This document shows positions 887-58,656 of a stretch of 64,000 bases of DNA, piece after piece. The notes below the pieces were generated by a model. The model did no database searches and had not been told where the DNA came from. It worked only from the letters and a program-made list of their open reading frames with translations. Positions within the stretch are counted from its first letter, which is position 1. Every line of letters starts with the position of its first letter. Source of the DNA: an uncultured bacterium (GTDB lineage: Bacteria > Armatimonadota > Abditibacteriia > Abditibacteriales > Abditibacteriaceae); contig CAWJLW010000006.1 in NCBI GenBank assembly GCA_963843795.1, positions 2,356,001 to 2,420,000 on the forward strand, read 5' to 3'. A program made the translations under genes and the position numbers.

Positions 887-986
887 AAATTCACCGCTTA
901 AAAATGGCCTGCAAGTACTTGCAGGCGCAACTGATGGAGAATGACTTGCAAGGCAGTGCGTCCATCAATTACGAGGACAACCTATT

Positions 987-2174
987 ATGCTCAACGCTCT
1001 GATTTTCGATCTCGACGGCACTCTGCTCGACAGCAACCAATTACACGTCCAAGCCTGGCAAAACGCTTTTCACGATCACAAATTTTTCGTCACCGACGCA
1101 CGCATTGAGGCCGAAGTCGGTAAAGGCGGCGACCAATTAGTGCCTGCCATCATCGGCAAAGTCGATGACCAAACTTCACAAAAATTGCGCGATTCGTATT
1201 CGCAACACATCGAAACCATTTTGAAAACCGCGCAAATCCCCATCATTGATGGCGCGCGCGAACTTCTTCAAGAACTCAAAAACCGCGAAATTCGGTTGGC
1301 GCTGGCCACGTCTTCCAAAAGCGATTTTCTGGAACAAATGGAGCGCGCGGCGGGTTGGAAATTCCGCGAGGAATTTGAAGTCGTCACGACATCCGATGAT
1401 GCACCGAGTTCCAAGCCCGCGCCCGACATCATCAGCGCTGTCGTCGAGAAATTGCAACTTTCGCCCGCCCAATGCGCCCTTGTTGGCGACACACCTTTCG
1501 ATGCGCAAGCCGCACGTCTGGGCGGTGTCAGTTGTCTGGGTGTTTTGTCGAGCAAAATGGGCGTACAAGGCGAAGTTCTGCAAGCTGCTGGCGCGCGTGA
1601 AGTTTATGACAACTGCGCCGACATAAGGCGTCATTTGGATGCCGCTCTCCATATGGCTTCGCCACTGCAAATTTCACTTTCCACCGAAAAATTGCAAGCT
1701 TTAATGCGCGCCGCTTTGGATTGCGCGCGCGAAGGCATGAGCAATGGCGAAGTTCCGATTGGCAGCGTACTAGCGGACGGCGCGGGCGAAATTGTGGCGC
1801 GCGGCTGGAATCAAATGAATGCCACGCAATGCAAAACCGCGCACGCCGAAATGCAATGTTTTCAAGATAGTGCAGGCAAAATTGCACTTGATGCGCGCGA
1901 TTCAATTCTGGTTTCCACACTCGAACCGTGTGTGATGTGTACTGGCGCCGCTATGGAAAGCGCCGTCGAAACCATTGTTTATGCTTTGGAAGCGCCGCCC
2001 GACAGCGGTAGCGCGCGCGTCGATTGCCCGCGTTCGCCCGAAAGCCAGATGCCGCGCATTATCGGTGGTATCTTGCGCGACGAATCGCGCGAATTGTTTG
2101 TCGAGTGGTTGAACAAAAACGGCGATAGTTCGCAAGCCAAATTCGTGCGCGCGCTGCTGGAATCGGCAGATTGA
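987..2174 (+). CDS. HAD-superfamily phosphatase fused to a zinc-dependent nucleoside/CMP deaminase domain
   Basis: N-terminal DLDGTLLDS, SKPAPD and VGDT HAD motifs; C-terminal HAE...TLEPCVMC deaminase motif; GAGGA RBS upstream. Confidence 0.85.
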   Translation: MLNALIFDLDGTLLDSNQLHVQAWQNAFHDHKFFVTDARIEAEVGKGGDQLVPAIIGKVDDQTSQKLRDSYSQHIETILKTAQIPIIDGARELLQELKNREIRLALATSSKSDFLEQMERAAGWKFREEFEVVTTSDDAPSSKPAPDIISAVVEKLQLSPAQCALVGDTPFDAQAARLGGVSCLGVLSSKMGVQGEVLQAAGAREVYDNCADIRRHLDAALHMASPLQISLSTEKLQALMRAALDCAREGMSNGEVPIGSVLADGAGEIVARGWNQMNATQCKTAHAEMQCFQDSAGKIALDARDSILVSTLEPCVMCTGAAMESAVETIVYALEAPPDSGSARVDCPRSPESQMPRIIGGILRDESRELFVEWLNKNGDSSQAKFVRALLESAD

Positions 2175-2202
2175 AAGGGTGCAGACTGCTTGCACCCTAT
2201 TT

Positions 2203-2856
2203 TCACAATTTCAGCGAAAATTTCTCGCCGCGTTTGCTCAAATTTGCGCCATTGAATAAGTGAAGCCACGCAAGTTGGCGTTTGAAATCGACCAGCCACA
2301 CGCCGCCAGCGCCTTTCTCTTTGCTATCAGCAATTTTGCCAGCATTGAGATTTATTAAATTGCCAAAACGCCGAAGCATACGCTGATGAGTATGGCCGTT
2401 TATCATAAATCGGAAACGGTTTTCGCGAATCAACTCGTTTAATTCCGTGTTCCACTGCAGGGTATATTTATCGTCATAGGGCCGTAAATCGCGCATGAAA
2501 TTTCCGCCCACGCCGTGACATTGCAATAGTTCGCCATGTGGCGTGTCCCATTGGCGCATTAGCGGCAGAGCATCGAGCCACGCACGGCCATCAGCATCGA
2601 GATCCTCAGAGTGATGCGCGTGTTCCAATTGCAATTGGAGGCCGCGCACAAACCAATCGTCATGATTACCGCGCACCGTTTGCACATTGTATTGTTGAAG
2701 CAAATCGACGCAGCGTTGCAAATTGCCCGCGCCATCGGGCACATCGCCGACGCTCAAAATCGTTTCGGCACGCTGTTTTGTCAGCCATTGCAGCGCGCTT
2801 TCCAAACGCGCGTCTTCGCCATGAATATCACCAATTATGCCCGTTAAATTTAGCAT
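2203..2856 (-). CDS. Calcineurin-like metallophosphoesterase
   Basis: DIHG, GD, GNHD and GHTH motifs; start moved to MLNLTG at 2856. Confidence 0.85.
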   Translation of the reverse strand: MLNLTGIIGDIHGEDARLESALQWLTKQRAETILSVGDVPDGAGNLQRCVDLLQQYNVQTVRGNHDDWFVRGLQLQLEHAHHSEDLDADGRAWLDALPLMRQWDTPHGELLQCHGVGGNFMRDLRPYDDKYTLQWNTELNELIRENRFRFMINGHTHQRMLRRFGNLINLNAGKIADSKEKGAGGVWLVDFKRQLAWLHLFNGANLSKRGEKFSLKL

Positions 2857-2935
2857 TGCGCTTCTCAATATCGTGATCACAAGGGCGGTGGCCGAAAATT
2901 GGCACCGCAAGTACTTGCAGGAGAATATAACGTTT

Positions 2936-4333: not shown

Positions 4334-4345
4334 TTTTCAATTTCT

Positions 4346-4395
4346 AAAACGATAAAAGCGCGCTGCAAGTACTTGCAGTGCGCTTTTATCGTTTT
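4346..4395. terminator. 50-bp near-perfect palindrome centred on the repeat, probable bidirectional terminator
   Basis: AAAACGATAAAAGCGCGCTGCAAGT|ACTTGCAGTGCGCTTTTATCGTTTT (one mismatch), between convergent genes. Confidence 0.75.
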
Positions 4396-4414
4396 TACGG
4401 GCATTTTGTCTACA

Positions 4415-6049: not shown

Positions 6050-6114
6050 GAATTCTCCGTGAATGCGATGAAAGTTGTTTGCTGACGAGCTTCAAGTCTT
6101 GCTTCAGATTTAGT

Positions 6115-6429: not shown

Positions 6430-6635
6430 GCGGCCTCCAAAATGCTTTAATAAGGAAATTCGTTACTTTCTTATCACAAAACCCTTATTACTGAAAGTCA
6501 CGTCTTTGAAAACACGCCTCTCCTGATGTGCCATGCGGATCGCTAACGCGAAGTGAAACAAAAAGCGCGCTGCAAGTACTTGCAGCGCCCGAAAAGTCAT
6601 TCAAAGCGCGCCTTTGCTAAACTGCGCCCGCTTTT

Positions 6636-7643: not shown

Positions 7644-7759
7644 TTCACCGCAAAGGACACGAAGTTCGCAAAGGGAAAAGGAAAGGAAAAAGGCTCTGCA
7701 AGTACTTGCAGAATGATTTCTCGGAAAAGCTTTGCGAACTTCGTGTCCTTTGCGGTGAA
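7644..7759. repeat. REP/MITE-like element: perfect 30-bp inverted repeats enclosing the palindrome
   Basis: TTCACCGCAAAGGACACGAAGTTCGCAAAG (7644-7673) and its exact reverse complement (7730-7759); core palindrome at 7699. Confidence 0.85.
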
Positions 7760-7769: not shown

Positions 7770-9830
7770 ATGCGAATTTCCAACGAATGGCTGCGCGATT
7801 TCGTCGAACTGCCCGACCAACGCGAGCTGGATAACACCTTTGAAATGGCCGGTCTGGGCGTTGAGAATTACTTCGACGACGTATGGAGCCTGGAAGTCAC
7901 TTCCAATCGCGGCGATTGCCTGAGTGCCATTGGTCTGGCACGCGAAATTTCCGCCATGACCGGGTCACGTCTGCGTTTGCCCACTCTCGAAGTTGAAGAA
8001 AACGGGCCGGATATCGCCGGTCGCGTACAAATCGAAATCGAAAATCCCGACGATTGCACCAATTATGTGGCGCGCTTGTTTGAAATCGAACTCGGCCCAT
8101 CGCCCGACTGGATGCAGCAGCGTTTAATTGAATGCGGAATGCGCCCAATTAACAACGTGGTTGACATCACTAACTACGTCATGCTCGAAACCGGGCAACC
8201 GCTGCACGCTTTCGACGCCGCGCAAGTACTTGCAGCCGATGGTACGCATCGCATCGTGGTGCGGCGCGCGCGCGAAGGCGAAGCACTGGAAACTTTGGAT
8301 GGCGTGACGCGCACTTTAAATGCGGAAATCTTGGTCATTGCCGATAGCGAAAAACCGATTGCGATTGCTGGCATTATGGGCGGCGCGGCTTCGGAAGTGA
8401 CTGAAAACACCACGCAAATTTTGCTCGAAAGCGCGCATTTTGCGCCCAGTCGCATACGTCGTGGCAAACGTATTTTGGGTTTGAATTCCGAAGCGGCGCG
8501 ACGTTATGAACGCCATGTCGATCCGAATAACACGCGCCGTTGTGCCGACCGCGCCGCACAACTGCTGGCTCGCTACGCCGGAGCCAAAGTCGCGCGCGGC
8601 GTGGTCGAGCGCATCGGCAAAATCATCGAAAAACCGGTTGTCACGCTGCGTCCCGAACGCTGCAATGCCGTGCTGGGATTGCATTTAAAAGTGCATGCGA
8701 TAAGCGATAGCTTGCAGCGCCTGGGCTTACAAGTCACAGGTGATGATAATTTGCTCAGCGTCACCGTTCCGACGTGGCGGGGCGACATCGAGCGCGAAAT
8801 TGATTTGATCGAAGAAGTGGCGCGCATTCATGGCTACTCGCAGATTCCCAACACCTTGCCTCATAACGCCAACCCAACCGCAGGGCGTTCTTTAGCGCAA
8901 CGTTTGGAAGGCCGTGCGCGCGAAGCTTTAGGGCGCTGCGGCCTGAGCGAAATCGTGACCTATTCGCTGGAAAGCGCGGCGGGCGTTGAACGCGCGGGCA
9001 TGGATAAGACAGCGCCCGTCGTGCGTTTGCGCAACCCGCTGTCGGAAGATTACGCGCAACTGCGCACTTCAATTTTGCCGTCGCTGCTGGAAGTTTTGGG
9101 GCGCAACGCGCGCACGGCAGTGCGCTTTTTTGAGCTGGCGCGCGTTTATGAACCGCAAGTACTTGCGGCGCCCATTGATGGACACGATGCGCAGCCGTAT
9201 GAAAAACCGGTGATTGGACTGACGATGTTGAACGCGCCAACACCCGCGCACTGGCAAAAGCAAAACACCGAAATTGATTTTTACACACTTAAAGCGGTCA
9301 TCGAAACTCTGCTGCAAGCGCTGGGTGCGCCGCGTGGCGAATGGCTTGGTGAAAGTCGCGCGCCATTTCATCCCGGACGTTGCGCGACGCTTCAAGTCAA
9401 CGGGCAGGAAATTGGCGTTATGGGCGAGGTGCATCCCGCCATTGCGGAGAATTATGATTTGCAAGGCCGCGCCTATTTAGCGGAACTCGATTTCGACGCG
9501 CTAATTCGCCATGTGAGCATCGATCAAAACGTGCAGCCAATTGCGCGTTTCCCGGTCGCCGACCGCGACATTGCCTTGGTTTTGCGCCGCGATTTGCCGG
9601 CCTCGCAAGTCGAAACCACAGTGCGCGCAGCGGCGGGCGAACTGTTGGAATCGGCGCGTGTGTTCGATGTTTACACCGGTCCGCCGATGGGCGAAAACGA
9701 AAAAAGTCTGGCGATTGCCCTGAAATTCCGCGCACCAAATCGCACCTTGACCGATGACGAAGTCGAAGCCGCGATGGCGCGCATTCGGGAAGCCGCGAAT
9801 GCTCATCTGAACGCACAAATTCGCAGTTGA
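7770..9830 (+). CDS. pheT: Phenylalanine--tRNA ligase beta subunit (short form)
   Basis: VTSNRGDCLS, INNVVDITNYVMLETGQPLHAFD and DLIEEVARIHGY motifs; C-terminal FDX-ACB domain; follows pheS. Confidence 0.95.
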   Translation: MRISNEWLRDFVELPDQRELDNTFEMAGLGVENYFDDVWSLEVTSNRGDCLSAIGLAREISAMTGSRLRLPTLEVEENGPDIAGRVQIEIENPDDCTNYVARLFEIELGPSPDWMQQRLIECGMRPINNVVDITNYVMLETGQPLHAFDAAQVLAADGTHRIVVRRAREGEALETLDGVTRTLNAEILVIADSEKPIAIAGIMGGAASEVTENTTQILLESAHFAPSRIRRGKRILGLNSEAARRYERHVDPNNTRRCADRAAQLLARYAGAKVARGVVERIGKIIEKPVVTLRPERCNAVLGLHLKVHAISDSLQRLGLQVTGDDNLLSVTVPTWRGDIEREIDLIEEVARIHGYSQIPNTLPHNANPTAGRSLAQRLEGRAREALGRCGLSEIVTYSLESAAGVERAGMDKTAPVVRLRNPLSEDYAQLRTSILPSLLEVLGRNARTAVRFFELARVYEPQVLAAPIDGHDAQPYEKPVIGLTMLNAPTPAHWQKQNTEIDFYTLKAVIETLLQALGAPRGEWLGESRAPFHPGRCATLQVNGQEIGVMGEVHPAIAENYDLQGRAYLAELDFDALIRHVSIDQNVQPIARFPVADRDIALVLRRDLPASQVETTVRAAAGELLESARVFDVYTGPPMGENEKSLAIALKFRAPNRTLTDDEVEAAMARIREAANAHLNAQIRS

Positions 9831-12254: not shown

Positions 12255-12310
12255 TTGAAGAAAATGGGCACTGCAAGTACTTGCAACGCACAATCCTCCA
12301 CAGAATCATC

Positions 12311-15569: not shown

Positions 15570-15573
15570 AACC

Positions 15574-16030: not shown

Positions 16031-16078
16031 TCCAGTTCCTTTCCAGTTCAACGTGTTGCAAGTACTTGCAACACCTCA

Positions 16079-17161
16079 TCAGCCGTTTTTCTGCGCAAAT
16101 TCGTTCATAAAGCCGGCAAGTACTTGCGCGCTTTCAATCGGCAGTGCGTTATACAGCGACGCACGCACGCCGCCGACATCGCGGTGGCCGGGCAAACCCA
16201 TCATATCGTGCGCAGCAGCCTCACTCAAAAATTGCGCTTCTAAACTTTCCTCGCGCAAACGAAACGTCACGTTCATCTGGCTGCGACTATCGATTTCCGC
16301 ATGACCACGATAAAAGCCATCTGAATGGTCGATACAATCGTAAATCAATTTGGCTTTTTCCTGATTGCGCTTTTCTATCGCGCTCAAGCCACCCAAATTT
16401 GCAATCCATTCGCACACTAAATCGACCAGATAAATGCCAAAAGTGTTCGGCGTATTATACAGCGAACGACTTTTGATATGCGTACGATAATCCAACATCG
16501 TCGGCAAATTCTCGGTCGTGGGCAACCAATCTTCGCGCACGATGACAACCGTGACACCTGCAGGGCCGATATTTTTCTGCGCGCCCGCGTAAATCAAACC
16601 GTAACGCTCGACATCAATTGAGCGGCTTAGAATATCCGACGATGCATCACACACCAGTTTCACGTCAGCGGTTTCCGGTTCACTGGCCCATTGCACGCCT
16701 TGAATGGTTTCATTGGACGTAAAATGCACATATTTGGCGCTGTCGTCCAATGTCATTTCATCGGCATTTGGCACGCGACGAAAACCACCATCTTCGGTCG
16801 AAGCGATGACGGACGCATCACCGAGCAGTTGAGCTTCTTTGAAGGCTTTGCGTCCCCAATCGCCGGTCAATAAATAACCGGCGCGCCGATTTTCGCCGAG
16901 CAAATTCATCGGCGCCATCGAAAATTGCAAACTGGCGCCACCCTGCAAAAACAAAACTCGAAAATCTTCGGGCAAACCTAACAAGGTGCGAATGCGATTT
17001 TCGGCAGATTGCGCGATGGTTTCAAAGCGCTTCGATCGATGGCTCAGTTCCATGACCGACGCACCCGCATCGGGCAGTTCGGGCAATTCTTCGCGCACGC
17101 GTTCGAGAACGGGCAGCGGCAACACAGCGGGGCCGGCATTAAAATTATGGCTTCGTGGCAT
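16079..17161 (-). CDS. serC: Phosphoserine aminotransferase
   Basis: NFNAGPA, ELSHRS, YAGAQKNIGPAG and GHRDVGGVRASLYNA motifs. Start is 17161 or 17170. Confidence 0.95.
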   Translation of the reverse strand: MPRSHNFNAGPAVLPLPVLERVREELPELPDAGASVMELSHRSKRFETIAQSAENRIRTLLGLPEDFRVLFLQGGASLQFSMAPMNLLGENRRAGYLLTGDWGRKAFKEAQLLGDASVIASTEDGGFRRVPNADEMTLDDSAKYVHFTSNETIQGVQWASEPETADVKLVCDASSDILSRSIDVERYGLIYAGAQKNIGPAGVTVVIVREDWLPTTENLPTMLDYRTHIKSRSLYNTPNTFGIYLVDLVCEWIANLGGLSAIEKRNQEKAKLIYDCIDHSDGFYRGHAEIDSRSQMNVTFRLREESLEAQFLSEAAAHDMMGLPGHRDVGGVRASLYNALPIESAQVLAGFMNEFAQKNG

Positions 17162-17324
17162 GACTTTCATTATACGAAAGCGCGGCACCGGTTCGCGGAC
17201 GCGTTTCTCATCAAAGCCAATCGAAAGACTGATATAAATGCTCTGGCAAGTACTTGCCAGAGCATTTTTGTCGATGCCGGTTCTTTGGCCGCACTTCTGC
17301 AAGAAATTAGCTGAGAGGTGACTT

Positions 17325-19071: not shown

Positions 19072-19120
19072 AAACATATCTGCAAGTACTTGCAGGAAAG
19101 GGCGAGAAAAGGTTGAAAAA

Positions 19121-20710: not shown

Positions 20711-20763
20711 AAATACGCTGCAAGTACTTGCAACCCACAAATTCTAAATTCCACATTCCAATT

Positions 20764-22424: not shown

Positions 22425-22466
22425 AACAAAAAGCGCGCTGCAAGTACTTGCAGCGCGCTTTTTGTT
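22425..22466. terminator. Perfect 42-bp palindrome centred on the repeat, probable bidirectional terminator
   Basis: AACAAAAAGCGCGCTGCAAGT|ACTTGCAGCGCGCTTTTTGTT between convergent genes. Confidence 0.75.
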
Positions 22467-23021
22467 TTATTGGGCGTTCAATTCCTGCAACATATTACAA
22501 AACAGCGCGCCTTGCTCGATGGCATCATCGAGCGCGCGATGCGTATGCGGCAAATCATCGAACCAATGGCGTGGCATCCGGCGTTTAGTGGCATTACGAT
22601 AATCGACTTTGAGCAGCGCCATGGCCAGCGTTTTCATATCGAGCGCCGAATGCGAAAACGGGCTTTCGCCCACAAAGCGCATTAAATACCAATACACGAA
22701 CAGAAAATCGAATGCGGCGGGATAACCAACGAAAACCGGCTTTCCCGGCAAGTTTTGAAGCCACTGCAAGTACTTGCGCATTGCAATTTCTGGCGTTTGC
22801 AAATCGCTCCGGCACGCTTGCCACGCGTCCGGCTGCGTTTCCCACCACGCCATCGTTTGGGCGTCAATTGTGGCTTCGGGCAGGGTTTCCAAGTTGGCTT
22901 CAAAAGTCGCAACCAAAATTTTATCGGGCCAATAGGCCGCCGAACCGAAACTGAGCATCGAGTTCTGGCCGGGAATCGGGCCATCAGTTTCAATATCGGT
23001 GCTGACGTAAATTTCTTTCAT
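22467..23021 (-). CDS. DEDDh 3'-5' exonuclease/exoribonuclease
   Basis: [12 protein letters not shown] and HRALDDA motifs. Confidence 0.85.
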
Positions 23022-24373: not shown

Positions 24374-24482
24374 AACCACAGAGGTCGGGGAGGACACAGA
24401 GATTATTGCGAAAAGCGCGCTGCAAGTACTTGCAAACAGATTCTCATTAAAAATCTCTGTATTCTCCGTGGCCTCTGTGGTT
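24374..24482. repeat. Second REP/MITE-like inverted-repeat element enclosing the palindrome
   Basis: AACCACAGAGGTCGGGGAGGACACAGAGATT (24374-24404) pairs at 26 of 31 positions with AATCTCTGTATTCTCCGTGGCCTCTGTGGTT (24452-24482); core at 24423. Confidence 0.75.
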
Positions 24483-25293: not shown

Positions 25294-25335
25294 AAGTGCG
25301 GTGCAAGTACTTGCCGCATAAATTTGAGGAAAGTT

Positions 25336-26082: not shown

Positions 26083-26134
26083 AGTTAGTGCGCTGCAAGT
26101 ACTTGCATCACGTTTTTCCTCTGCTCTCTAAATT

Positions 26135-26947
26135 ATGGCACGCACAGCCGCATCGGTTCCTTTTGCGACGCGCGCAATTGTTTTGCGGGTGCGGCCTTTG
26201 GGCGAAAAAGACCGTATCGCGACAGTTTTCGCGCCCGATATCGGACGTTTTGGCGCGGTCGCGCGCGGCGCACGGGCGACGAAATCGAAGCTGGCCGCAG
26301 TCGCACAACCCTTCGTGAGCGGGCGTTTCTTATTTGCCCGCGGGCGTTCTCTGGACACATTAACGCAGGTCGAAATCGAAAACGCGCATTTTCATCTGGC
26401 AACGCACGCGCTGGGCGGCGCGTGGGCGACTTATTGTTGCGAACTGTGCGATGCTTTGCCCGAACGCCATCCCGAACCGGAAATTTTTCATACCCTGTCC
26501 GACACTTTGAGCGCAATGGATGCGCTGTGTGCCGAAAATGCCGAAAATGCCACACTGATTTTAATCGGTCACTGGTTTGAAATTCGCTTTCTGGCTCTGT
26601 TGGGTTATCCCAGCCAAATCGGGCGTTGTGTGGAATGCGAACGAAAAATCGTGGTGCCTCCAGGAAATGACACGCGAACTATCGCGTTTTCTCCTCAGCG
26701 CGGAGGAACGCTATGCGAACAATGCGCGCGCCTGGATGCCGGACGAATGACGCCGAGTGTGGCGACTTTGCGACGCTGGCACGCTTTGGAGCGCATGGAA
26801 AGCGCGACGCAAGTACTTGCGGGCGAATTGCCATCGCCCAAGCTGCTGGGCGAATTGCGCGATTTACTGCGGCGACAAATCACCACTCATCTGGATATGC
26901 GTTTACGTTCGCGGCGTTTTCTGGATGATGTTTCTCAAGCGTTATAA
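26135..26947 (+). CDS. recO: DNA repair protein RecO
   Basis: LGEKDRI...ARGAR; zinc finger CVEC...CEQC. Confidence 0.9.
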   Translation: MARTAASVPFATRAIVLRVRPLGEKDRIATVFAPDIGRFGAVARGARATKSKLAAVAQPFVSGRFLFARGRSLDTLTQVEIENAHFHLATHALGGAWATYCCELCDALPERHPEPEIFHTLSDTLSAMDALCAENAENATLILIGHWFEIRFLALLGYPSQIGRCVECERKIVVPPGNDTRTIAFSPQRGGTLCEQCARLDAGRMTPSVATLRRWHALERMESATQVLAGELPSPKLLGELRDLLRRQITTHLDMRLRSRRFLDDVSQAL

Positions 26948-30419: not shown

Positions 30420-30581
30420 GCCAAATCCCTCACATAACAATGCCCTGCAAGTACTTGCAGGGCATTGTGCTAAAAATAAATTCGCGATAACGCAGATTTG
30501 CAATGGAATTGCAAATCTGCAACGCTTATAATGAAAGTTGGTTTTGATAAGCTGAGCCGAGAAGGGACAAAAGGAAAAAAT

Positions 30582-35916: not shown

Positions 35917-35964
35917 ATTTTGCCCAGGTGCATTGCAAGTACTTGCAATGCACCTGGGCAAAAT
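35917..35964. repeat. Perfect 48-bp palindrome centred on the repeat
   Basis: ATTTTGCCCAGGTGCATTGCAAGT|ACTTGCAATGCACCTGGGCAAAAT just after the stop codon. Confidence 0.9.
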
Positions 35965-38534: not shown

Positions 38535-38633
38535 TCTGCAACTTTGCTTCTGCAAGTACTTGCAAGGCGCTTTTTGCAGCTCTCAACGCAACATCGCACG
38601 CCCAATGTTATCGAAAGATGTCATTCAAAAGGG

Positions 38634-40469
38634 ATGAAAATGAAAATACAAATCACTACTCTTTTACTGTTGTGCGGCGCATTGGCGAGCGGAATGGCGT
38701 GCGCGCAGAATCAACCGAAAAGCGAGCCGCAAGGCACGCCAATTTTAGAGAAAAGCGCGCTGGAAAGCGTGAAGTTGGGCACGACACCAATTGAAACGAT
38801 TGATGTAACCGGTCAGGAATTCAAGCGCGCTTTGCGCGTTCGCGTGCCACAAACCAACGGCGAAAGCAACGCGATTCAAATCACACTGAACAACAAAGCG
38901 CCGGTTGCCAAAGGCGATGCCCTGATGGCAACTTTCGCGGCACGAGGACAGGCGGAAAAAGGCGCGCCGCAAATGATGTTTTTGTTCGAGCGCAACCGCG
39001 ATCCGTGGACGAAAAGTGCTTCACAAGGCGTTTCGCTGCCGATTGATGGCAGTTGGAAACGTGTGGCAATTCCGTTCACCGCACAGGAAGATTACGCGCC
39101 CGGCGAAGTGATGAGTTCGCTGCGATTGGCTTTCGGCGCGCAAACTTTGGATATCGCTGAGATGCAGGTTTTCGATTATGGCAAAAATCTCACTGTCGCG
39201 CAGTTGCAAGTACTTGCCGCGCAAATGTCGCCGATAGGAAACGTAAAATTGCAAATCGCCCCCAATGAAAAACGCCAAATGATGCGCGGTCTGGGCGGTA
39301 ACTACACCGGCGGCTGGCGCGCAGGCAACGGCGAACCCAATGACCGCGTGGCTCAATACACCCGCAAGTACTTGCAGCCCGCACACGCGCGTCTGGCTTT
39401 ATCGCTGAAATTGTGGCAGCCCGATGAAAATGGCGCATTTCACGCTGATGGCAAAAACGCGGGCGTGCTGCAAATGGCGAAAGAATTTACCGAAAAACGC
39501 GTGCCCCTGACACTCAGTATCTGGGAAGTTCCCGATTGGATGACCGCCAAAGCCAATGGCAAAACAATCATTCCCGAAGCGCATTGGGACAACGCGATCA
39601 ACGCTTTAGCAGGTTTTCTGGAGCGAGCGCGCGATGAATTCAAAGCGCCAATTGACACGATTTCCTTCAACGAAGCCGATTGGGGCGTCGATGTTTATTT
39701 CACGCCCGAACGTATGGCTGCGTTCATCAAGCGCGCCGTGCCCGAATTCCAAAAACGCGGTTTGAAAACTCTGTGGTTGGCGGGCGATACCACGAGCGGA
39801 GGCAATTGGGCAAAGTGGACGCGCCCGCAATTGGAAGATGCCGCCTTGCGTCCGTTTCTCGGCCCGGTCGCGTTTCACTCGTGGGACGCATTGAGTGCCA
39901 GCGACGCGAGTTATCAGGAAATCGCGCAAATTGCCCAAGAATATAATCGCGAAGTGTGGTGCTTGGAAGCCGGTTCCGATTCGCAGGCGTGGCAACTCAA
40001 ACCTGCGGTGTGGCCGACGTGGAACTACGCGATGCAACTGGCGCAATCTTATGCGAAAACTATCGGCGTTGCGCGCGCTTCTCTGCTCGATTACTGGACC
40101 TATCGCAACGATTATCCCTTAATTTCGGGCGAGGATACACCTTATCCATCGTTCAAAATTTTGCGACAGTTGGGCGAGAATTTCGGCAAAGGCACACAAG
40201 TCATCGGCGTAATCAGCGACAACACGGGCGTGCAAACCATCGCAGGCGTAAAGCCCGATGGCACAACGGTTATTTTTATCGTCAATCCCAATGGCACAGG
40301 TGACATGACAATTAGCAGTTTGAAGGCGAATGCAAAAGCGACGCTGACTGTTTCGGATGAAAGCGCACAAAATCGCACATTGCCGAATAAATTGAGCGTT
40401 GATAAAGCGGGTGAATTGAAAGTTCAATTGCCGTTGCGTTCGGTTTTGCTGATTGAAGTCGCTAAATAA
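38634..40469 (+). CDS. Secreted clan GH-A (GH30-like) glycoside hydrolase with an N-terminal CBM-like domain
   Basis: Signal peptide; RQMMRGLGG, SFNE (acid/base) and VWCLE (nucleophile) pattern; C-terminal beta sandwich. Confidence 0.6.
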   Translation: MKMKIQITTLLLLCGALASGMACAQNQPKSEPQGTPILEKSALESVKLGTTPIETIDVTGQEFKRALRVRVPQTNGESNAIQITLNNKAPVAKGDALMATFAARGQAEKGAPQMMFLFERNRDPWTKSASQGVSLPIDGSWKRVAIPFTAQEDYAPGEVMSSLRLAFGAQTLDIAEMQVFDYGKNLTVAQLQVLAAQMSPIGNVKLQIAPNEKRQMMRGLGGNYTGGWRAGNGEPNDRVAQYTRKYLQPAHARLALSLKLWQPDENGAFHADGKNAGVLQMAKEFTEKRVPLTLSIWEVPDWMTAKANGKTIIPEAHWDNAINALAGFLERARDEFKAPIDTISFNEADWGVDVYFTPERMAAFIKRAVPEFQKRGLKTLWLAGDTTSGGNWAKWTRPQLEDAALRPFLGPVAFHSWDALSASDASYQEIAQIAQEYNREVWCLEAGSDSQAWQLKPAVWPTWNYAMQLAQSYAKTIGVARASLLDYWTYRNDYPLISGEDTPYPSFKILRQLGENFGKGTQVIGVISDNTGVQTIAGVKPDGTTVIFIVNPNGTGDMTISSLKANAKATLTVSDESAQNRTLPNKLSVDKAGELKVQLPLRSVLLIEVAK

Positions 40470-40489
40470 TGCTGCAAGTACTTGCAGCG

Positions 40490-42897: not shown

Positions 42898-43014
42898 AGT
42901 TCACCTTTGATAAATTGAAAGTAAAATAGCCCTGCAAGTACTTGCAGGGCTATTTTATCATTTGTGCTTCAGAAGTCGTATTTCCAGCGCGCTGCAAGTA
43001 CTTGCAAAGCAACT

Positions 43015-46000: not shown

Positions 46001-46821
46001 TGTAACATCGGCTTGACCGCCGCTGCCACAGCGTAATCGCTCCAAAACCATTGGCCCGCAGTCGTGAGCGCGGTTTGTGTTTTGGTCGCATCGGTTAAAG
46101 AAGCGCGAAACACAAACGGATTCGGATTGAGGGCGGCGTCGGCGCGCTGCCCCAGCAAACCGCTGGTTTTCCATTCGCCGCTCACGCGCGTCCACTGACC
46201 GGGGTTTTCCTTTTCGTCGGGGCTTTCGGCGCGCATGAAATCGTCGCTGAAGTAGGTCGCTTCCCAAGGTTGCACGCGCGCACTTTCGATTTTCGCTCCT
46301 TGACTGGCCACGCCCCATGAGCCTTGAGGAATTTCGCCCCACATTTGCGCCACCACCGCACCGTTCCACAACGCCCGCGTGCGCGCACTGGTATGTTGCA
46401 GCGAAAGCTGAGCGTTAGCCGAAAGTACTTGCGACGCGCCATCTTGACCGACCGGCGATAATTTTCCGTTTTGCGCGCGCCAAAACTGCGCTTTGATTTG
46501 CTTGCCATCGCTTTTCAACAACAACATCTGATAATCGCGCTCCGATATGCGCGCGAAAATCAAGCGCGTTTCAAAAGGCGCGTTAGCCGACAAATCGCCG
46601 CGCCACGTCCAGGCACTTTCATCATTATCTTCCCATGTAAACGAGTTCTCCCAGCCACGATTATCGGGCGCAGCGATTGGAGCAGAATTTATGACAGCCG
46701 GCGCGGCGTGCAGCGGTGAAAACAGGCTGCAAGTACTTGCAGCCAGAAATACCCCGCAAGTACTTGCAGGGCGATAATTTTTAAAAGAAGTGATTAGTGA
46801 GCGGCGAGAAAGAAAACGCAT
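43015..46821 (-). CDS. Large secreted beta-sandwich protein with an inserted PDZ domain
   Basis: YVGVRL...SPALKAGLKDNDIV..VDG (PDZ); LamG/ConA-like WHRI...VDG segments; start moved to MRFLS. Confidence 0.7.
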   Translation of the reverse strand: MRFLSRRSLITSFKNYRPASTCGVFLAASTCSLFSPLHAAPAVINSAPIAAPDNRGWENSFTWEDNDESAWTWRGDLSANAPFETRLIFARISERDYQMLLLKSDGKQIKAQFWRAQNGKLSPVGQDGASQVLSANAQLSLQHTSARTRALWNGAVVAQMWGEIPQGSWGVASQGAKIESARVQPWEATYFSDDFMRAESPDEKENPGQWTRVSGEWKTSGLLGQRADAALNPNPFVFRASLTDATKTQTALTTAGQWFWSDYAVAAAVKPMLHDANAPLVAALNAYVQKDGTRVSGEVDFRTGRATIKRGSKVLGASAAFEVDPDQWHRIYLDPGPGTLRLLVDGVERVRVDGESSEGDLAQGPLALSANTGGANTIDFDDVRAVPTDATSDQFAHAIVGRWDDWQGVWQTQAQNKSGRRVALSAGSALSLTGGSEREEGLVEATFALSDKNSVPAVVFAARDAKNFYAARLRAGQLEIVEVNADTPRLLSATKATFGLTPKIEIEWRDGIITARAGSASTMATVASVPAGRVGVWSVGTAKSVALTSFRALGAAPSWGEGALPERFAKDVLMKNWASNAAAWKRGSDGTWWHVGDFFGDSALTLPLPKLPDGGTLTLRLAANPANSESGAQVKIARAGTNWQWTLSQNGKTLDTQTLADADWKDEVRTVRFVRRPLDSERALLRVAANGRALMSQTTQSSKVDGIKSGVTWGGTIPTPPKGNVINIELTTTEREKRAYVGVRLAEITPPLQKDLDYDGKGAFIQGVEAASPALKAGLKDNDIVQNVDGKAVDSAEQIIAQVQTKKPGEKVALQIWRPAVVQSVVDWENTLATTTQALDYTFTSAPVDWQATQGKWEVAERWTCSPQWAFFVGSNAVNPTLWSRFGTRDDWTLEAYVATPMDLTRGERSPIDLNLTVAGDGRDLASGYSFVFGGENRTVSRIYRGDKIVLEKPFELPPGSDNTHQDWFYVRVERRRTPQGLNFKYSVNNRVVMEFTDPQPLDSGKSGGRFAFWTYNGGLSIARARLWYQNLSPATAPLLTAQKPEIVPVVTPVKNALDEWAPRRDDVLKISSRVQEISEAGKNGVKIVNPQSGGDWTTYVSRRAYDAKARPILGFDYRIGSDALVNVYVKIDNRWREIGFTGNGTVSPAAADELGNTSLAPFDDAPNRPAITAGFAPLPAMPVDSSVVLGQIADVKADRQWHHAQFDLLSALRQANLGTAVQEIAFAAPNQDYVLCGLGGNHLGASYEIANFQGDKIGAAGAQMAAR

Positions 46822-49432: not shown

Positions 49433-49468
49433 CGTCGCAAGTACTTGCAAAGCAGCTCAAGGACAATT

Positions 49469-50925: not shown

Positions 50926-50981
50926 TTTCCACCCAAAACGCCGCTCTGCAAGTACTTGCAGAGCGGCGTTTTGGGTGGAAA
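50926..50981. repeat. Perfect 56-bp palindrome centred on the repeat (longest in the window)
   Basis: TTTCCACCCAAAACGCCGCTCTGCAAGT|ACTTGCAGAGCGGCGTTTTGGGTGGAAA. Confidence 0.92.
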
Positions 50982-51521: not shown

Positions 51522-51734
51522 AGCATTTCGGATGGCACGTTTTGAACATTAAATTATGATTCAAACGCGCTTTTCAGTTGTCTCCCGTGTGAATTCAAGA
51601 TTCAGCGTTTTTAGAAGCTACCAGCAGATTTTGGTTGCGCAAGCGTGGCAAGTACTTGCGAGCTTTGCCAGACGTGTTCCACCATAAAAGTTCTTTAATT
51701 TCTTTTTCGATTGGACGTTTTAATTAATTTTTTA

Positions 51735-52328: not shown

Positions 52329-52589
52329 TGAACTTATTTTATCGCGTCCAGACCCATCTGTGTGTCAAGTTCATCAACTGTCAGCAATTTTTGTTGATAC
52401 AGCTTCTGCTTTGGGCACACCCTGACCAGATAAATTTTCGCTCGCTTAAAACAAAGAGCGCGCGTGGCAAGTACTTGCCAGGCTTTTTTGGATATTTTGG
52501 ATAATGGCTGCCGTTTTACGATGTGGCGGCATAAAATATGCAGAGGCTGAGTTATCACAGATATTTAGTAGTTACACAAGGAGATTAAA

Positions 52590-53024: not shown

Positions 53025-53072
53025 TTGCATCCGATTCGAGTTTCAATTAACGAGACGCGAATTCAACAAAAG

Positions 53073-53108
53073 AAAAGCGGAGCCAGAAATATTTCTGGCT
53101 CCGCTTTT
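53073..53108. terminator. Perfect 36-bp palindrome, probable bidirectional terminator
   Basis: AAAAGCGGAGCCAGAAAT|ATTTCTGGCTCCGCTTTT between convergent genes. Confidence 0.8.
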
Positions 53109-53143
53109 TCGTTGCTCCGAACGATTTATTTGCCGATTGAGAT

Positions 53144-53740: not shown

Positions 53741-53928
53741 GATTTTCCCTTAAATTTCTTTCAAACAGGTGCCTCATTTTACTCTGCTGCAAGGTCAGAA
53801 AGCGCTGCAAGTACTTGCAGCGCGTTTTTCCTCGTCCTCAGAATTAGGTATAAAGGAATACACCGTACTTGTGTTTTTTACGATTGGTGCGCGGAATTAT
53901 CAAAAATTTGGGATAAAAGGTTTTATTA

Positions 53929-56900
53929 ATGAAGGTTTCTCATCGAGTTGGGTTTTCATTGTTGCTGCTGGCACCGATTGGCGCGACCAGCACATTGCCA
54001 GTTGCAGCACAAACGGCCAGAACTGACGCTTTAGCAAAGGGCTTCACCGCGCCGCCCGACAGCGCCAAGCCGCATACATGGTGGCATTGGATGGACGGCA
54101 ACACGACGCGCGAAGGCATTACTGCCGATTTGGAAGCGATGAAACGCGCGGGCATCGGTGGTGCACAGATTTTCTCGGTTTCGCAAGATATTCCCAGCGG
54201 CCCAGTGCCATTTATGTCGCCACAGTATCGCGAAATGATTCGTTTCGCCGCGCAGGAAGCCAATCGGTTGGGCATCGAACTGTGTCTGCACAATTGCGCG
54301 GGCTGGTCGAGCAGCGGTGGGCCGTGGAACACGCCCGCAAACGCAATGCAATTTGTGACGACAAGCGAAAAAACTGTGACCGGCCCGACGCGCTTCGATG
54401 ATGATTTGGCGCAGCCGAATACGCGACTGAATTATTATCGCGATGTTGCCGTATTAGCGTTCCCCACGCCCGCGCAAAACGTGCGCATCGAAAATCTGGG
54501 CCCCAAAGCCTTATATGAACGCGGTGGTGAAATCGAGCCCTCGAACGCAAAGGGCGCGCCGCCCGAAGCGACGATTGCACCCGACAGAATCGTTAATCTC
54601 ACTGCAAAAATGCAAAACGGGCATTTGACGTGGGATGTGCCAGCAGGCAATTGGACGATTTTGCGTATCGGCCACACGCCAACCGGTGCAGTGAATGCGC
54701 CTGCGCCTGATGCGGGACGCGGGCCAGAAGTCGATAAATTATCGAAAACTGCCCTTGATGCGCACTTCAAGGGTATGATGCAGCCGCTTTTGGATGAAGT
54801 CGGGCCGCTCGCCGCTAAGACGATTAACAATTCGCTGATTGATTCTTACGAAGTCGGCAGCCAGAACTGGACGCCGTTGTTGCAGCAAGAATTCCAGAAG
54901 CGACGCGGCTACGACATGTTGCCGTATTTGCCAGCTTACACCGGTCGCATCGTCGGCAACAGCGCGCAAACCGAGCGTTTTTTGTGGGATTTACGGCGCA
55001 CCGTCGCCGAATTGATGGACGAAAATTATTTCGGCCATTTCGCAGAATTATGCCACGAACGTGGTTTGAAATTTTCAGTCGAGCCTTATGGTAATGGTCC
55101 GTTCGACGAACTCACAGCGGGCAAAATGGCCGACGTGCCGATGGGCGAATTCTGGATTGGCGGAGCCGCAGCCGAAACCTGCAAATTGGCTGCATCAGTC
55201 GCGCATGTTTACGGTCGGCAACTGGTTGGTGCCGAATCGTTCACTGCCGGGCCGGATGAAGGTCGCTGGCAAAACGATCCGTATTCAATCAAAGCGCAGG
55301 GCGACGCGATTTTCTGCAAGGGCATCAATCGTTACATTTTCCATCGCTACGCCATGCAGCCGTGGCTGAACCGTTATCCGGGCATGACAATGGGCCAATG
55401 GGGCATCAATTTCGAGCGCACCAACACGATCTGGGAACCGCAACAAACTTGGCTGCAATACGTCGCGCGCTGCCAATTTTTGCTACAACAAGGCCGCTTT
55501 GTGGCTGATGCGTTATATTTCAGCGGCGAAAATTCGCCCACTAGCCAGCGCAACGCCGGACAAGGTTTGCCCGCGGGCTACGATTACGACAGTTGCAGTT
55601 TCGACGCGTTAATGAATCGAATCAGCGTGCGCGATGGACGTTTGGTAACGCCCGCTGGAATGAGCTATCGCGTCTTGATTTTGCCGCCTGGCGAAACTAT
55701 GACGCCGCAACTGGCGACCAAACTGCGCGACTTGGTTCGCGCTGGTGCGACGGTTATCGGTTCGCGCCCGACGCGTTCGCCGAGTCTGCAAAACTTTCCG
55801 GTTGCCGACCGGCAAGTGCAGCAAATCGCGCAGGAAATCTGGGGTGATAGCGATGGCAAAACCGTGACTGCGCATCGTTTGGGTAAAGGTCAGGTTTTCT
55901 GGGGACAAAGCGTCGCGCAAGTACTTGCAGCGCTCAAAGTTGCGCCCGACTTCAGCTACGATAGCAGCAAAGCGCGTCTAATGCAGATTCATCGCACGTC
56001 CAATGGCAGCGAAATTTATTTCGTTTCTAATCAGCAAAAGAAAACCATCGAAATCGAGTGCTCGTTTCGCGCGACCGGCGTTCCTCAACTGTGGCACGCC
56101 GACACGGGACGTATGGAAAGCGCACCGATTTATCGTGTCGAAAACGGGCGCACAATTGTCACGTTGCGTTTCGATCCGGTGGGTTCGGTTTTCGTAATCT
56201 TTCGTCCTGGCAAGGCACCAAACCATTTGGTCGCGACACGCTTCGTCGGCACGACAGCCGTAGCGAAGAAGCTGCCAAAGTTGACGATTCTCAGCGCGCG
56301 CTATGAAGCTATTGATGGCGCGGGCGGTGCGGATGTGACCGATAAAGTGGCCGCCCAGGTTGCTAACGATTCGCTGAGCATCGTCGCTAATAACCAACTT
56401 TTTGGCGATCCGGCAGATTTGCATGTCAAGCATTTGGTCGTCGAATATATGCTGGGCGATGAGAAGAAAAGCGTCACAGTCGGCGAAAATTCTAACTTAG
56501 ACTTAGGTAGCGAAAGCGGCAATACGGCTTATCCTCCGTTCTCATGGAGTTCGGATACGCGTGGCAATACGCAGGTCACAGCGTGGCAAGGTGGCTTCTT
56601 GAACTGGCAAAACTCGCGCGGGCAAAATCGCCGAACGACGCTGCCAGCGAATGCCGACGCGCAGGAAATTTCTGGCGCGTGGCAGTTGAATTTTCCGCCT
56701 AATTGGGGCGCGCCCGCGCAGGTTGCTCTGGACAAATTGATTTCGTGGACGGAACATCCCGAATCGGGCGTGCGCTATTTTTCAGGTACCGCAACTTATC
56801 GCAAAACTTTCGATTTGCCAGCCAGCCAATTCGGCAAAAATTCGGTCATTTCGCTAGATTTAGGTCAAGTGAAAAATTTAGCGCGCGTGCGTTTGAACGG

Positions 56901-57222: not shown

Positions 57223-57351
57223 AATCAGAGAATGAAGAGGCGCTCTGCAAGTACTTGCAGAGCGCCTTTTTCGTGTCGGGAGTTGAATCGATTGGCGTAT
57301 TTATCCGCAAGTACTTGCAGCGACACAACGCGCGGGCCTAACTGTAGCGCT

Positions 57352-57936
57352 ATGAATTGGCTTTATTTTGATGTTGAAACCTTGCGCTCTGCCGAAGAAG
57401 TCGGTGGCTGGCGCAATATTGAAGCGATGGGCATCGCTTGTACCGTAACTTACAGTTCGCGCGACAAACAATTTCGGGTTTATCGCGAGCACGAATGCGA
57501 GGCTTTGAGCGTGGCAATGCAACAATGCGACGCGCTGTGCGGCTTCAACTCGCGTCGTTTCGACCTGCGCGTTTTACAGCCGCACATCGATTGCGATTTA
57601 TCAGCGCTGCCGCACTTGGACTTGATGCTCGACCTCAAAAGTGCGCTCGGTTTTGCGCCCTCGCTGAACGCGTGTTGCCGCGCAACTTTAGATGCGGGCA
57701 AAACCAGTAACGGTTTGGAATCTTTGCAATGGTGGCGCGAAGGCCGTGAAGATGAAGTGATCGCTTATTGCCGCGAAGATGTGAAATTGACGCGCCGATT
57801 GCACGAGTTCGGTGCCAAAAATGGCTCCATCGCGCTGGAGACTCGTGGGCGCGGCGCGCGCAATGCCGTACGCCACGTCGAAGTCGATTGGAGCTTAGAC
57901 GCTCTGCATCGCACCATTCAAGGCTCGTTATTTTGA
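57352..57936 (+). CDS. RNase H-like DEDD nuclease domain protein (RNase_H_2/YprB-like)
   Basis: YFDVET, GFN..RFD and YCREDV motifs; start moved to MNWLY. Confidence 0.8.
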   Translation: MNWLYFDVETLRSAEEVGGWRNIEAMGIACTVTYSSRDKQFRVYREHECEALSVAMQQCDALCGFNSRRFDLRVLQPHIDCDLSALPHLDLMLDLKSALGFAPSLNACCRATLDAGKTSNGLESLQWWREGREDEVIAYCREDVKLTRRLHEFGAKNGSIALETRGRGARNAVRHVEVDWSLDALHRTIQGSLF

Positions 57937-57952
57937 AAAGTATTTGTGGGCT

Positions 57953-58519
57953 TCATAAGTTTTTGGGTTGCCCGGCAAGTACTTGCAGACGTGAAATACG
58001 CCACACGAGCGCGATTAACACCAAGAGGCCTAGATACAATCCGACAGCGGCGACACTGCTATAGCGGGCGTGCGCGGCATCGAAGACAGCTTTGGACGCC
58101 GGATCGCCGAGCTTGGTTTGCAAACCTTGAATCTGTGGCATCAGCACTTGATTGAGATAAAGCGCAATTCCAAGCATCGCCAGCGAAGACGCGCCCTGAA
58201 TCCACCACCAAATCCTATCGACTCGGTCGCTTACCGCTCCGTTAATTTGCTCTACAAGCCAACCCAGCAAAAGCAGCACGCTACACGCGTAAGTGACGTA
58301 GCCAAAGCGCGAAAGCATTAACGCGACCATCTGCGGTGCGAGTTCGCCCTGCCCTGCCGCGCGCGCGATTTTGAACATTGCGGGCGCGGCCAGCGCGCCG
58401 AAAAATCCCAAACCGCCAATCCATAGCGCTAGCGCTAAAAGCACGAAAACACGCGCGATGGTTAGCAAAATCAAAGGTGTTTGACGAGTTTTAGGTCGGG
58501 GGATTTGAACAGTTGACAT
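57953..58519 (-). CDS. DUF4149/TMEM205-like membrane protein
   Basis: WIGG..FF..AAP..F; four TM helices; FDAAH..YS. Confidence 0.8.
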   Translation of the reverse strand: MSTVQIPRPKTRQTPLILLTIARVFVLLALALWIGGLGFFGALAAPAMFKIARAAGQGELAPQMVALMLSRFGYVTYACSVLLLLGWLVEQINGAVSDRVDRIWWWIQGASSLAMLGIALYLNQVLMPQIQGLQTKLGDPASKAVFDAAHARYSSVAAVGLYLGLLVLIALVWRISRLQVLAGQPKNL

Positions 58520-58656
58520 AGCAACAAGTGTGGAAATTTTCCTTCAGGAGCGCAACGCGCGTTTGCTTGGCATTGTTTTTATTAGAAGTCAGCGCTACAA
58601 GTACTTGCAGCGAGAAATTCCGAAGTGTTCTGGAGGTAAAACTATCACTGCAAAAA

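Follow-up and report, generated by a model that had tools for sequence, protein, structure and literature searches.

A 12-bp palindrome iterated across an Abditibacteriaceae genome lies in helically phased DNA and varies by dialect among relatives

The palindrome in the window and across the genome

The window analysed here, a stretch of 64,000 nucleotides, is C6:2356001-2420000 of genome G000, an Abditibacteriaceae assembly of 4.30 Mb in 11 contigs that is 92% complete, and the element under study is the 12-bp palindrome GCAAGTACTTGC, which recurs along it among pheS, pheT, trp genes, recO and other genes. Gene contexts follow our own dicodon caller, which gave 3,390 genes in G000 with approximate starts. 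The window holds 42 exact 12-mers, spanning 911 to 57986, and none was found in any of 100 dinucleotide-shuffled versions of it. The inner 10-mer of the palindrome has 43 copies, the 43rd of which (58598-58607) belongs to a 12-mer with one mismatch. Thirty of the 42 lie between genes (18 in codirectional, 8 in divergent and 4 in convergent gaps) and 12 are coding. These recounts agree with an earlier note on this DNA, which had given at least 43 copies of the 10-mer, 42 of them as full 12-mers, and about 29 intergenic copies. The copies and variants are listed below, none with a strand assigned.

911..922, 12-mer in a divergent gap; perfect half-arm 10
2907..2918, 12-mer in a divergent gap
4365..4376, 12-mer in a convergent gap
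6572..6583, 12-mer upstream of pheS, divergent gap; half-arm 11
7698..7709, 12-mer between pheS and pheT
8222..8233, 12-mer within pheT, QVLA frame; AGTACT core at the same aligned position in G001, G009 and G019
9155..9166, 12-mer within pheT, in an indel-rich loop
9839..9850, 12-mer directly after the pheT stop
12273..12284, 12-mer in a codirectional gap
16058..16069, 12-mer in a codirectional gap; half-arm 11
16116..16127, coding 12-mer, 3' end of an aminotransferase gene
17236..17267, 32-bp perfect palindrome centred on the 12-mer at 17246-17257, divergent gap
19082..19093, 12-mer in a codirectional gap
20720..20731, 12-mer between trpD and trpC
22425..22466, 42-bp perfect palindrome with A/T tails centred on the 12-mer at 22440-22451, convergent gap; predicted two-way terminator, z -7.6
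22766..22777, coding 12-mer
24422..24433, 12-mer between trpB and trpA
25303..25314, 12-mer in a codirectional gap
26095..26106, 12-mer upstream of recO
26809..26820, 12-mer within recO
28196..28207, coding 12-mer, TPR protein
29647..29658, coding 12-mer, TPR protein
30437..30468, 32-bp perfect palindrome centred on the 12-mer at 30447-30458, codirectional gap
32105..32116, coding 12-mer, Ig-domain protein
35917..35964, 48-bp perfect palindrome centred on the 12-mer at 35935-35946, after a stop codon
36669..36680, one-mismatch variant of the commonest type (A to G at position 4)
38552..38563, 12-mer in a codirectional gap
39206..39217, coding 12-mer
39364..39375, coding 12-mer
40474..40485, 12-mer in a convergent gap
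42922..42957, 36-bp perfect palindrome centred on the 12-mer at 42934-42945; predicted terminator, z -7.1
42994..43005, 12-mer, second copy in the gap of 42934-42945
46421..46432, one-mismatch variant
46729..46740, 12-mer in a divergent gap
46756..46767, 12-mer 27 bp from the copy at 46729..46740
49437..49448, 12-mer in a codirectional gap
50926..50981, 56-bp perfect palindrome centred on the 12-mer at 50948-50959, convergent gap; predicted two-way terminator, z -13.3
51648..51659, 12-mer in a codirectional gap
52467..52478, 12-mer in a divergent gap
53807..53818, 12-mer in a divergent gap; half-arm 11
55917..55928, coding 12-mer, rhamnosidase
57238..57267, 30-bp perfect palindrome centred on the 12-mer at 57247-57258, after a stop codon
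57307..57318, 12-mer, second copy in the gap of 57247-57258
57975..57986, coding 12-mer
58597..58608, one-mismatch variant, holding the 43rd copy of the 10-mer

Genome-wide, the exact 12-mer occurs 2,567 times (597 per Mb, about one per 1.6 kb) and on all 11 contigs, compared to 7.5 copies expected under a fifth-order Markov model. The exact word predominates over its mismatch variants: sites with zero, one, two and three mismatches number 2,567, 506, 371 and 1,534, where the model expects 7.5, 47, 247 and 1,581. The commonest one-mismatch variant has G for A at position 4, an inner position rather than an end, and the half-site on its own is not enriched in G000 (2,959 observed, 2,988 expected). 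Two other features of the genome's composition were seen, the depletion of CGATCG (observed/expected ratio, O/E, 0.20) and the frequency of runs of at least 20 A (270 overlapping 20-mers). Along contig C6 the 12-mer keeps to about 30 copies per 50 kb with no origin-terminus gradient, which makes a partition-type site unlikely; of the protein-site option raised in the earlier note, it is the nucleoid or other protein site that survives.

Non-coding DNA holds 71% of the copies. In all, 1,804 lie in gaps (1.9-4.3 per kb), so placed that 1,619 of the 3,025 gaps of at least 12 bp carry one, as do 236 of the 441 divergent gaps, and density peaks in convergent gaps at 4.25 per kb. The 746 coding copies (0.20 per kb) occur in all three frames within long open reading frames. 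Most clusters, 2,218 of 2,392, are single copies. Close doubles number 26, of which 13 are exact 12-bp tandems, 7 are spaced at 13 bp, 4 at 10 bp and 2 at 15 bp; examples are C6:373245, C6:2705917 and C10:202032. They sit mostly within mirrored arms, suggesting fold-back or staggered-cut events at the motif edge. An adapter or assembly artefact is ruled out, since coding copies fall in three frames of long open reading frames and the same motif, or a sister of it, is present in separate assemblies of relatives (~66-80% nucleotide identity). One DNA sequencing run, possibly from the source sample, contained 0.29 of the words in short contigs of low depth and gave no polymorphism at the sites; the results here do not draw on it, and no RNA run was listed with the words. 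A search of a mainly open-access literature collection gave no mention of the 12-mer or of AGTACT as an overrepresented palindrome, and among the papers listed for Abditibacterium with a repeat or palindrome none names the genus; a hot-spring methylome preprint does not mention AGTACT.

Dialects of a shared core in relatives

The family comparison covered 27 Abditibacteriaceae genomes, 6 motif-rich and 21 motif-poor, with dialects read from sampled DNA. The exact 12-mer did not exceed 3 copies in any of 40 relatives. Counts of its AGTACT core were bimodal within the family, at 2,813-4,733 per genome in G000, G001, G009, G012, G015 and G019 and 1-285 in the remaining 21. The word is CAAAGTACTTTG in G001, TCGAGTACTCGA in G009, G015 and G019, and CGAGTACTCG in G012, and a looser form, CAAGTACTTG, was found among the matches listed on metagenome contigs of other species (~66-80% identity), at loci selected by a 16-mer. 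All dialects have the AGTACT core, carried in four flank types. The exact 12-mer is thus one dialect, and 5 of the other 26 genomes in the family also iterate the core; these relatives and the G000 counts support the earlier proposal of a lineage-specific, chromosome-wide signal. In a tree built from PheT alone the motif-rich genomes are not monophyletic: G012 pairs with motif-poor G017, and G009, G015 and G019 group with motif-poor G006 (support 90/84).

Other repeats and carriers were observed. In G006, the motif-poor sister of G009, the repeated element is another one, a 24-bp perfect palindrome centred on an EcoRI site and with GTAC close to either end (L053, L015). On an unrelated metagenome contig (L137, ~3990-4200) a 22-bp tandem array contains the 12-mer in its first units and an altered core in later ones. 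Viral contigs gave 6 single matches to the 16-mer and in none a second 12-mer. Jumbo phage 121Q has 903 AGTACT in 348.5 kb, and a link to it was rejected: its flanks are not in phase, it has no match to the methyltransferase described below, and its 22 BLAST matches to G000 are nearly all to common enzyme or repeat families.

Long arms and terminator-like copies

The lengths of perfect half-arms in G000 are bimodal, with a second peak at 16-18. The 437 sites with half-arms of at least 16 comprise 379 distinct sequences and share no conserved body beyond ~16 bp; long arms are concentrated in convergent gaps (62%) and rare in genes (0.7%). From one base to the next, arm symmetry extends with a probability of 0.6-0.96 and past the first mismatch drops to chance (0.22-0.31), a pattern that fits template-switch copying. 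Long perfect arms are also found in hairpins of motif-poor relatives.

These arms bear on whether the palindrome is primarily a transcription terminator or RNA hairpin family. Among convergent-gap copies 181 of 291 have perfect half-arms of at least 15, and of four window sites that we folded three gave strong hairpins with a GUAC loop (z -7 to -13), while the coding site gave none. By our own criterion, however, 442 of the 2,567 copies are terminator-like, copies also occupy divergent gaps and coding sequence as counted above, an Rfam search of the window gave no match, and hairpins centred on the genome's own dialect occur at 10 per Mb in G009 compared to 136 per Mb in G000. The rarity of dialect-centred hairpins in G009 and the share of terminator-like copies indicate that termination is a secondary, lineage-specific use; as the primary role it is largely refuted and retains next to no probability.

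Even spacing and motif-empty islands

The density of coding copies depends on the gaps around the gene. With gene starts excluded, it is 0.381 per kb where neither flanking gap has a copy, 0.214 where one does and 0.080 where both do, a roughly fivefold difference; three control words, with small counts, showed no such trend. Less than 200 bp from an intergenic copy, coding copies have a density of 0.08 per kb, which climbs to 0.46 per kb at distances of 2-3 kb; at more than 5 kb it is again 0.08 per kb, on 3 sites in 37 kb, and this probably reflects the islands. Motif-to-motif gaps longer than 4 kb number 80, compared to 127 ± 7 in the null, and short gaps with two copies are rarer than Poisson. 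The genome thus behaves as if about one site per neighbourhood is needed, with little gain from a second.

The two longest motif-empty stretches of C6, ~26 kb each, include IS-like (insertion sequence-like) genes and a type I restriction-modification island with one end close to a tRNA gene, and the first 32 kb of C3 (G000:C3:1-32000), also motif-free, looks from its protein starts like a contractile-injection locus; the IS and contractile-injection labels are presumptive. The last 23 kb of C6 (C6:3600000-3623414), with 67% GC and no motif, may be foreign or misassembled.

Origin and protein cost of coding copies

To see coding copies in aligned proteins we compared G000 with 190 genes of G009 (0.49 of 3.8 Mb) and 145 genes of motif-poor G003 (0.46 of 6.7 Mb). 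No net length change was found at 30 of 42 coding sites against G009 and 25 of 33 against G003, and G000 was longer by four residues at only one site in each set (1/42, 1/33). The sites sit in variable stretches (identity 0.39-0.40, compared to 0.60-0.63), and 14 of 31 windows were gapped in a smaller mixed sample of motif-poor loci. The mostly gap-free alignment points to substitution as the main origin of coding copies, with some indels.

These comparisons bear on a further possibility, a REP (repetitive extragenic palindrome) or MITE (miniature inverted-repeat transposable element) spread by a transposase of the RAYT (REP-associated tyrosine transposase) type. The copies are mostly extragenic, there are 13 exact tandems plus 11 near-tandem pairs with a spacing of 10 or 13 bp, and sites lie in indel-prone stretches. 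Long palindromes nonetheless share no body, coding sites arise mostly without length change, and the sole Y1 transposase match looks truncated and is flanked by GTAG-type repeats of its own, so the option did not hold up and we give it scarcely any weight. That RAYT-type gene (G000:C6:751655-752440, L070) has GTAG-footed REP pairs unrelated to the 12-mer.

The core stands at the same aligned base in G000 and G009 at 4 of 45 sites, compared to 0.09 expected at random, on small numbers. Given VL in both genomes, the core was shared in 4 of 7 cases, compared to 18 of 241 (p = 0.0014), and with all motif-rich sets taken together 20 of 54 sites were shared, some loci overlapping. At the pheT site at 8222 the aligned peptide is QVL, KVL or RVL in three dialects, Q, K and R swapping with the dialect, and 497 of the 560 QVLA peptides of G000 are encoded by the motif's codons. 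The motif reshapes proteins, and its even spacing is kept at a cost to them.

Helical phasing around the dyad

AA, TT and AT steps oscillate on both sides of the dyad with a best period of 10.5 bp and peaks at ~15, 25, 36, 46 and 57 bp; the genome's own AA/TT autocorrelation peaks at 11-11.5 bp. Measured as the in-phase AA/TT/AT amplitude around the dyad (bootstrap standard deviation ~0.0025), the signal is 0.075 at 18-39 bp, 0.029 at 39-60 bp, 0.019 at 60-81 bp and 0.004-0.010 out to ~200 bp. It is graded by match, from 0.042 at perfect sites through 0.030 with one mismatch and 0.017 with two to 0.011 at bare AGTACT, and all seven control hexamers stayed within ±0.007. It was absent at 892 AGTACT sites of phage 121Q (-0.0045 ± 0.002) and at 250 sites of the cyanobacterial highly iterated palindrome HIP1 on the Nostoc plasmid pCC7120alpha (-0.003 ± 0.004).

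Two features define the nature of this signal. First, it amounts to 0.045 in non-coding bases and 0.033-0.041 at each of the three codon positions and is ~0 around 439 motif-free xVLx peptides, which rules out the helix periodicity of proteins as its origin. Second, close to stop codons the A-tract on the upstream side matches the downstream T-tract in strength (2,312 and 2,165) and half-sites are not enriched, indicating a double-stranded, two-fold signal. Narrow minor grooves ~5, 15 and 25 bp from a centre bend DNA around something that faces the central major groove, and the groove phase at the G000 dyad is that of the nucleosome dyad. Curvature over ~70 bp also pins plectoneme tips (PMC6301789).

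Symmetric periodic flanks of similar reach are a property of DNA gyrase sites, which cover 130 bp with a 10.75-bp period (PMC6379681), and a strong gyrase site, cut around the central GTAC with the phased flanks wrapped, would suit the peak of density in convergent gaps and the one GyrA/ParC-family gene matched per genome. The dyad-aligned A+T profile, however, runs opposite to the E. coli gyrase matrix (r = -0.48 on either side; PMC6379681, Table DS10), and shifting it by 5 bp brings the correlation to no more than 0.36 and 0.49. In the GyrA alignment just 5 columns distinguish motif-rich genomes from motif-poor ones, and three of these fall within a single variable insertion. A gyrase site centred on the dyad is rejected by the anti-phase flanks, and the wider gyrase explanation is highly improbable.

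A solitary methyltransferase and a candidate lost nuclease

G000 has a single PF01555 gene, a solitary beta-class adenine methyltransferase at C6:2517365-2518135; C5 (PF00145) and D12 methyltransferases had no match in this 92%-complete genome, and its type I M subunit sits in a motif-empty island. The nearest structures, both distant (E 1e-36 to 1e-30), are M.RsrI and then M.BceJIV, which reads GTWWAC (PMC11380664). Within the family the gene is present in all 6 motif-rich genomes and in 16 of the 21 that are motif-poor, two of the latter copies having stops, and no residue cleanly splits the two classes.

Word avoidance suggests what this enzyme reads. GTAC is among the 6 scarcest of 136 four-mers in all 8 non-family carrier groups (69 loci, O/E 0.11-0.58), compared to 1.03 at 12 unrelated loci, a value biased slightly upward by selection. 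In the family, 15 of 16 motif-poor carriers have GTAC at O/E 0-0.54 and the non-carriers G010, G021 and G023 at 0.79-0.83. GTAC is thus the likely target of the solitary methyltransferase. Avoidance can be extreme: GTAC is near-absent (O/E 0-0.08, sampled DNA) from G005, G008, G011, G014, G013, G022, G041, G042 and G024 (e.g. L049, L050, L051), and AGTACT occurs once in 6 Mb of G005. Directly upstream of the same methyltransferase, G005, G014 and G041 have a HARE-HTH plus Mrr-type nuclease gene (L318:579-1373, L327:4794-5585, L082:1029-1892).

A candidate partner, a protein of ~240 residues with a hydrophobic, signal-peptide-like leader, adjoins the methyltransferase gene in G003, G017, G020 and 4 of 69 other-phylum loci. 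It has no Pfam or NCBIfam match; Atlas fold leads point to PvuII- and ScaI-type nucleases below the naming bar, and it has a W-D...K pattern. It was found in 13 of 16 motif-poor carriers, in none of the 6 motif-rich genomes (in G000 without a profile match in six frames) and in none of the 5 non-carriers. A restriction-modification pair therefore likely lost its nuclease where the motif flourished. The candidate nuclease (L326:2114-2845 in G003, and 12 other family genomes) has 995 homologues, including cyanophage proteins (phrog_6892); at 4 loci of the cyanophage homologues GTAC has an O/E of 0.30, with GGCC, CCGG and AGCT equally low. An exported restriction enzyme would be unusual.

The earlier note had proposed methylation-directed drive around the core and a check for correlation with methyltransferase genes. 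The connection to GTAC methylation survives among its options; all motif-rich genomes carry the gene, as do most motif-poor ones, and drive alone leaves phased flanks and even spacing unexplained.

An orphan methyltransferase with a likely inner target is also what a strand mark for methyl-directed mismatch repair would call for. In Elhai's HIP model hemimethylated sites direct repair within ~1 kb, accumulate to about one per kb and saturate (PMC4390886), and the 1-1.6 kb spacing with saturation fits that scale; mutS and mutL are present. Yet MutH was not found in any of the 5 genomes tested, motif-rich genomes do not differ from their motif-poor sisters in the nuclease motif of MutL, single mismatches fall most often at position 4 and not at the ends, and 12-bp specificity, dialects and phased flanks go unexplained, so we consider this role improbable. 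The MutL C-terminal domain (L445-L473) reads CQHRAHE or NQHRAHE in each of the 29 class members, in place of the DQHA that we take to be the canonical nuclease motif; the C form marks genera g1, g3, g5 and g6.

The nuclease's signal-peptide-like start would also fit the screening of incoming DNA, and with it a self-DNA uptake or recombination signal, in which preference for DNA with the palindrome, perhaps methylated, would drive its number up until most fragments carry one, in the manner of the DNA uptake sequence (DUS), the uptake signal sequence (USS) or methylated HIP1. G000 has comEC and what we take, from short motifs, to be a dprA-like gene. Density near 600 per Mb, shared-core dialects, terminator co-option and scarcity in mobile islands resemble DUS (PMC3630211; 10.1101/2025.10.24.684340), USS have helically phased T-tracts (PMC3458573), and methylated HIP1 raises transformation (10.1101/2024.09.10.611283). 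DUS and USS cores, however, are not palindromes, and the two T-tracts of USS differ from the symmetric phasing over at least 80 bp seen here. comEC is present in all 27 family genomes irrespective of the motif, and 20 genome-maintenance genes, picked by motif or BLAST, hold 8 copies compared to 6.2 expected (P = 0.29, with low power). We regard uptake or recombination as unlikely, though a serious alternative.

A proposed site for a DNA-bending protein

The reading that we favour, at roughly even odds (about 0.5), is that the palindrome is the site of a two-fold symmetric DNA-bending protein that organises the chromosome into short bent or looped units. A dimeric protein would bind the dyad inside a bend and shape chromosome loops or supercoils, the A/T steps ~4, 15, 25, 36 and 46 bp from the dyad turning the central major groove to the inside of the bend. 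The inner GTAC would be N6-adenine methylated by the solitary methyltransferase, and since the methyl groups would then lie in the inward-facing major groove, the reader would be methylation-sensitive. Loss of the GTAC-cutting partner nuclease would have lifted GTAC avoidance and freed the core for use as a mark, dialects would track shifts in the reader's specificity, and about one in six G000 copies would have been co-opted as a two-way terminator loop, with arms perfected by local template-switch copying. A fuller version is possible, if on balance doubtful: a disarmed GTAC restriction-modification system may have turned into a chromatin code, in which a methyl-marked 12-bp dyad in pre-bent DNA, about one per 1.5 kb, positions a sequence-specific, histone-free wrapping protein chromosome-wide, with co-evolving species dialects.

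Several results weigh against the bending-protein proposal. First, no reader emerged among the families tried: histone folds, RHH_1 and AbrB/MazE have no match in G000 (PF00808 and PF09123 none in 5 of 5 genomes; PF00125 was not searched), no motif-linked gain was seen for HU, YbaB, GyrA or MutL, the occurrence of Mrr_N and HARE-HTH does not follow that of the motif, and small genes with doubled upstream sites, read by eye, found no support as candidates. Second, phasing is weaker in relatives (0.012 ± 0.003 in G009, 0.021 ± 0.007 in G012, 0.006 ± 0.003 in metagenome relatives) and undetectable on the 34 sites of G001 (0.003 ± 0.008), and the phasing of no more than 32% of sites lies above the 95th percentile for random positions. 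Third, the methyltransferase is insufficient by itself for the motif, being present in motif-poor genomes too, and the word avoidance that points to its GTAC target has exceptions: G006 has the enzyme without avoidance (GTAC O/E 0.95), and GTAC is avoided without a methyltransferase match in G016 (0.06), G002 (0.34) and G025 (0.21). The nuclease split between motif-rich and motif-poor genomes has p = 0.001, a value that overstates the case because kin are not independent and three motif-rich genomes are only 63-89% complete. Lastly, coding sites mostly turn over, few being common to G000 and G009, and an uptake signal would likewise be consistent with the even spacing, the dialects and the phased T-tracts. 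The single HU of G000 (C6:985654-986061, L437) is 38-49% identical to the HU of four family members, below PheT identity.

The system has wider interest because what HIP1 and other highly iterated palindromes do is still debated (PMC5861425). A case that is independent and from another phylum, offering a long specific site suited to affinity capture, a bend direction in its flanks and selection for even coverage, narrows the options, and several natural dialects with motif-rich and motif-poor sister genomes allow gene-set subtraction. A route to such signals is suggested, in which the restriction nuclease is lost and the methyltransferase kept. Were the reader an architectural protein, this would add a new mode of bacterial chromosome organisation; were it an uptake receptor, a third, palindromic uptake system. 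Dialects also distinguish resident from recently acquired DNA and can aid metagenome binning of Abditibacteriaceae.

Comparison with known systems

Uptake sequences in Neisseriaceae (DUS) and Pasteurellaceae (USS) likewise have thousands of copies, shared-core dialects, terminator use and frame bias, and USS have T-tracts in helical phase (PMC3630211, PMC3458573). Their core is non-palindromic and forms inverted pairs in terminators, whereas the G000 word is a perfect palindrome that makes a single hairpin centre, its half-sites are not enriched and its symmetric phasing is long. GTAG/CGTC REPs are extragenic, conserved 20-40 bp hairpins with a tetranucleotide foot and a flanking RAYT gene. 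G000 shares with them extragenic palindromes, some in terminators, but lacks a terminal tetranucleotide tag, a conserved 20-40 bp body and a linked transposase, and has many coding copies. The E. coli gyrase motif also has symmetric periodic flanks around a two-fold centre, but with a degenerate core and the opposite dyad phase; here the core is a strict 12 bp and the amplitude decays with distance (PMC6379681). M.BceJIV, like the G000 enzyme, is an orphan with sites enriched in intergenic DNA, an excess of GTWWAC that was put down largely to base composition; its target differs from the GTAC likely read in G000 (PMC11380664).

The closest likeness is to HIP1, GCGATCGC, and alternate HIPs, which are genome-wide palindromes at hundreds per Mb in genes and spacers (PMC4390886, PMC5861425). 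The class is defined by gross over-representation at ~500-2,500 per Mb (PMC4390886), a range that includes the density in G000. In HIP1 too, variants replace the motif in some lineages and positions are shared between genomes above chance, here on small numbers; an orphan methyltransferase that reads an inner word, as is likely in G000, would be a further likeness. HIP1 proper has a different sequence and belongs to cyanobacteria rather than Abditibacteriaceae. HIPs are 5-8 bp long and mostly at least 75% GC, with C5 methylation at GmeC (PMC4390886), compared to 12 bp, 50% GC, a largely non-coding distribution and no PF00145 match in G000, and variants here are commonest at an inner position, unlike those of HIP1. 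As the earlier note had supposed, the motif matches none of HIP1, DUS/USS and REP. It forms a HIP-like system in a second phylum, outside all three by the features tested, and its long dyad with helically phased flanks (0.042) sets it apart from the HIP1 sites of the one plasmid tested.

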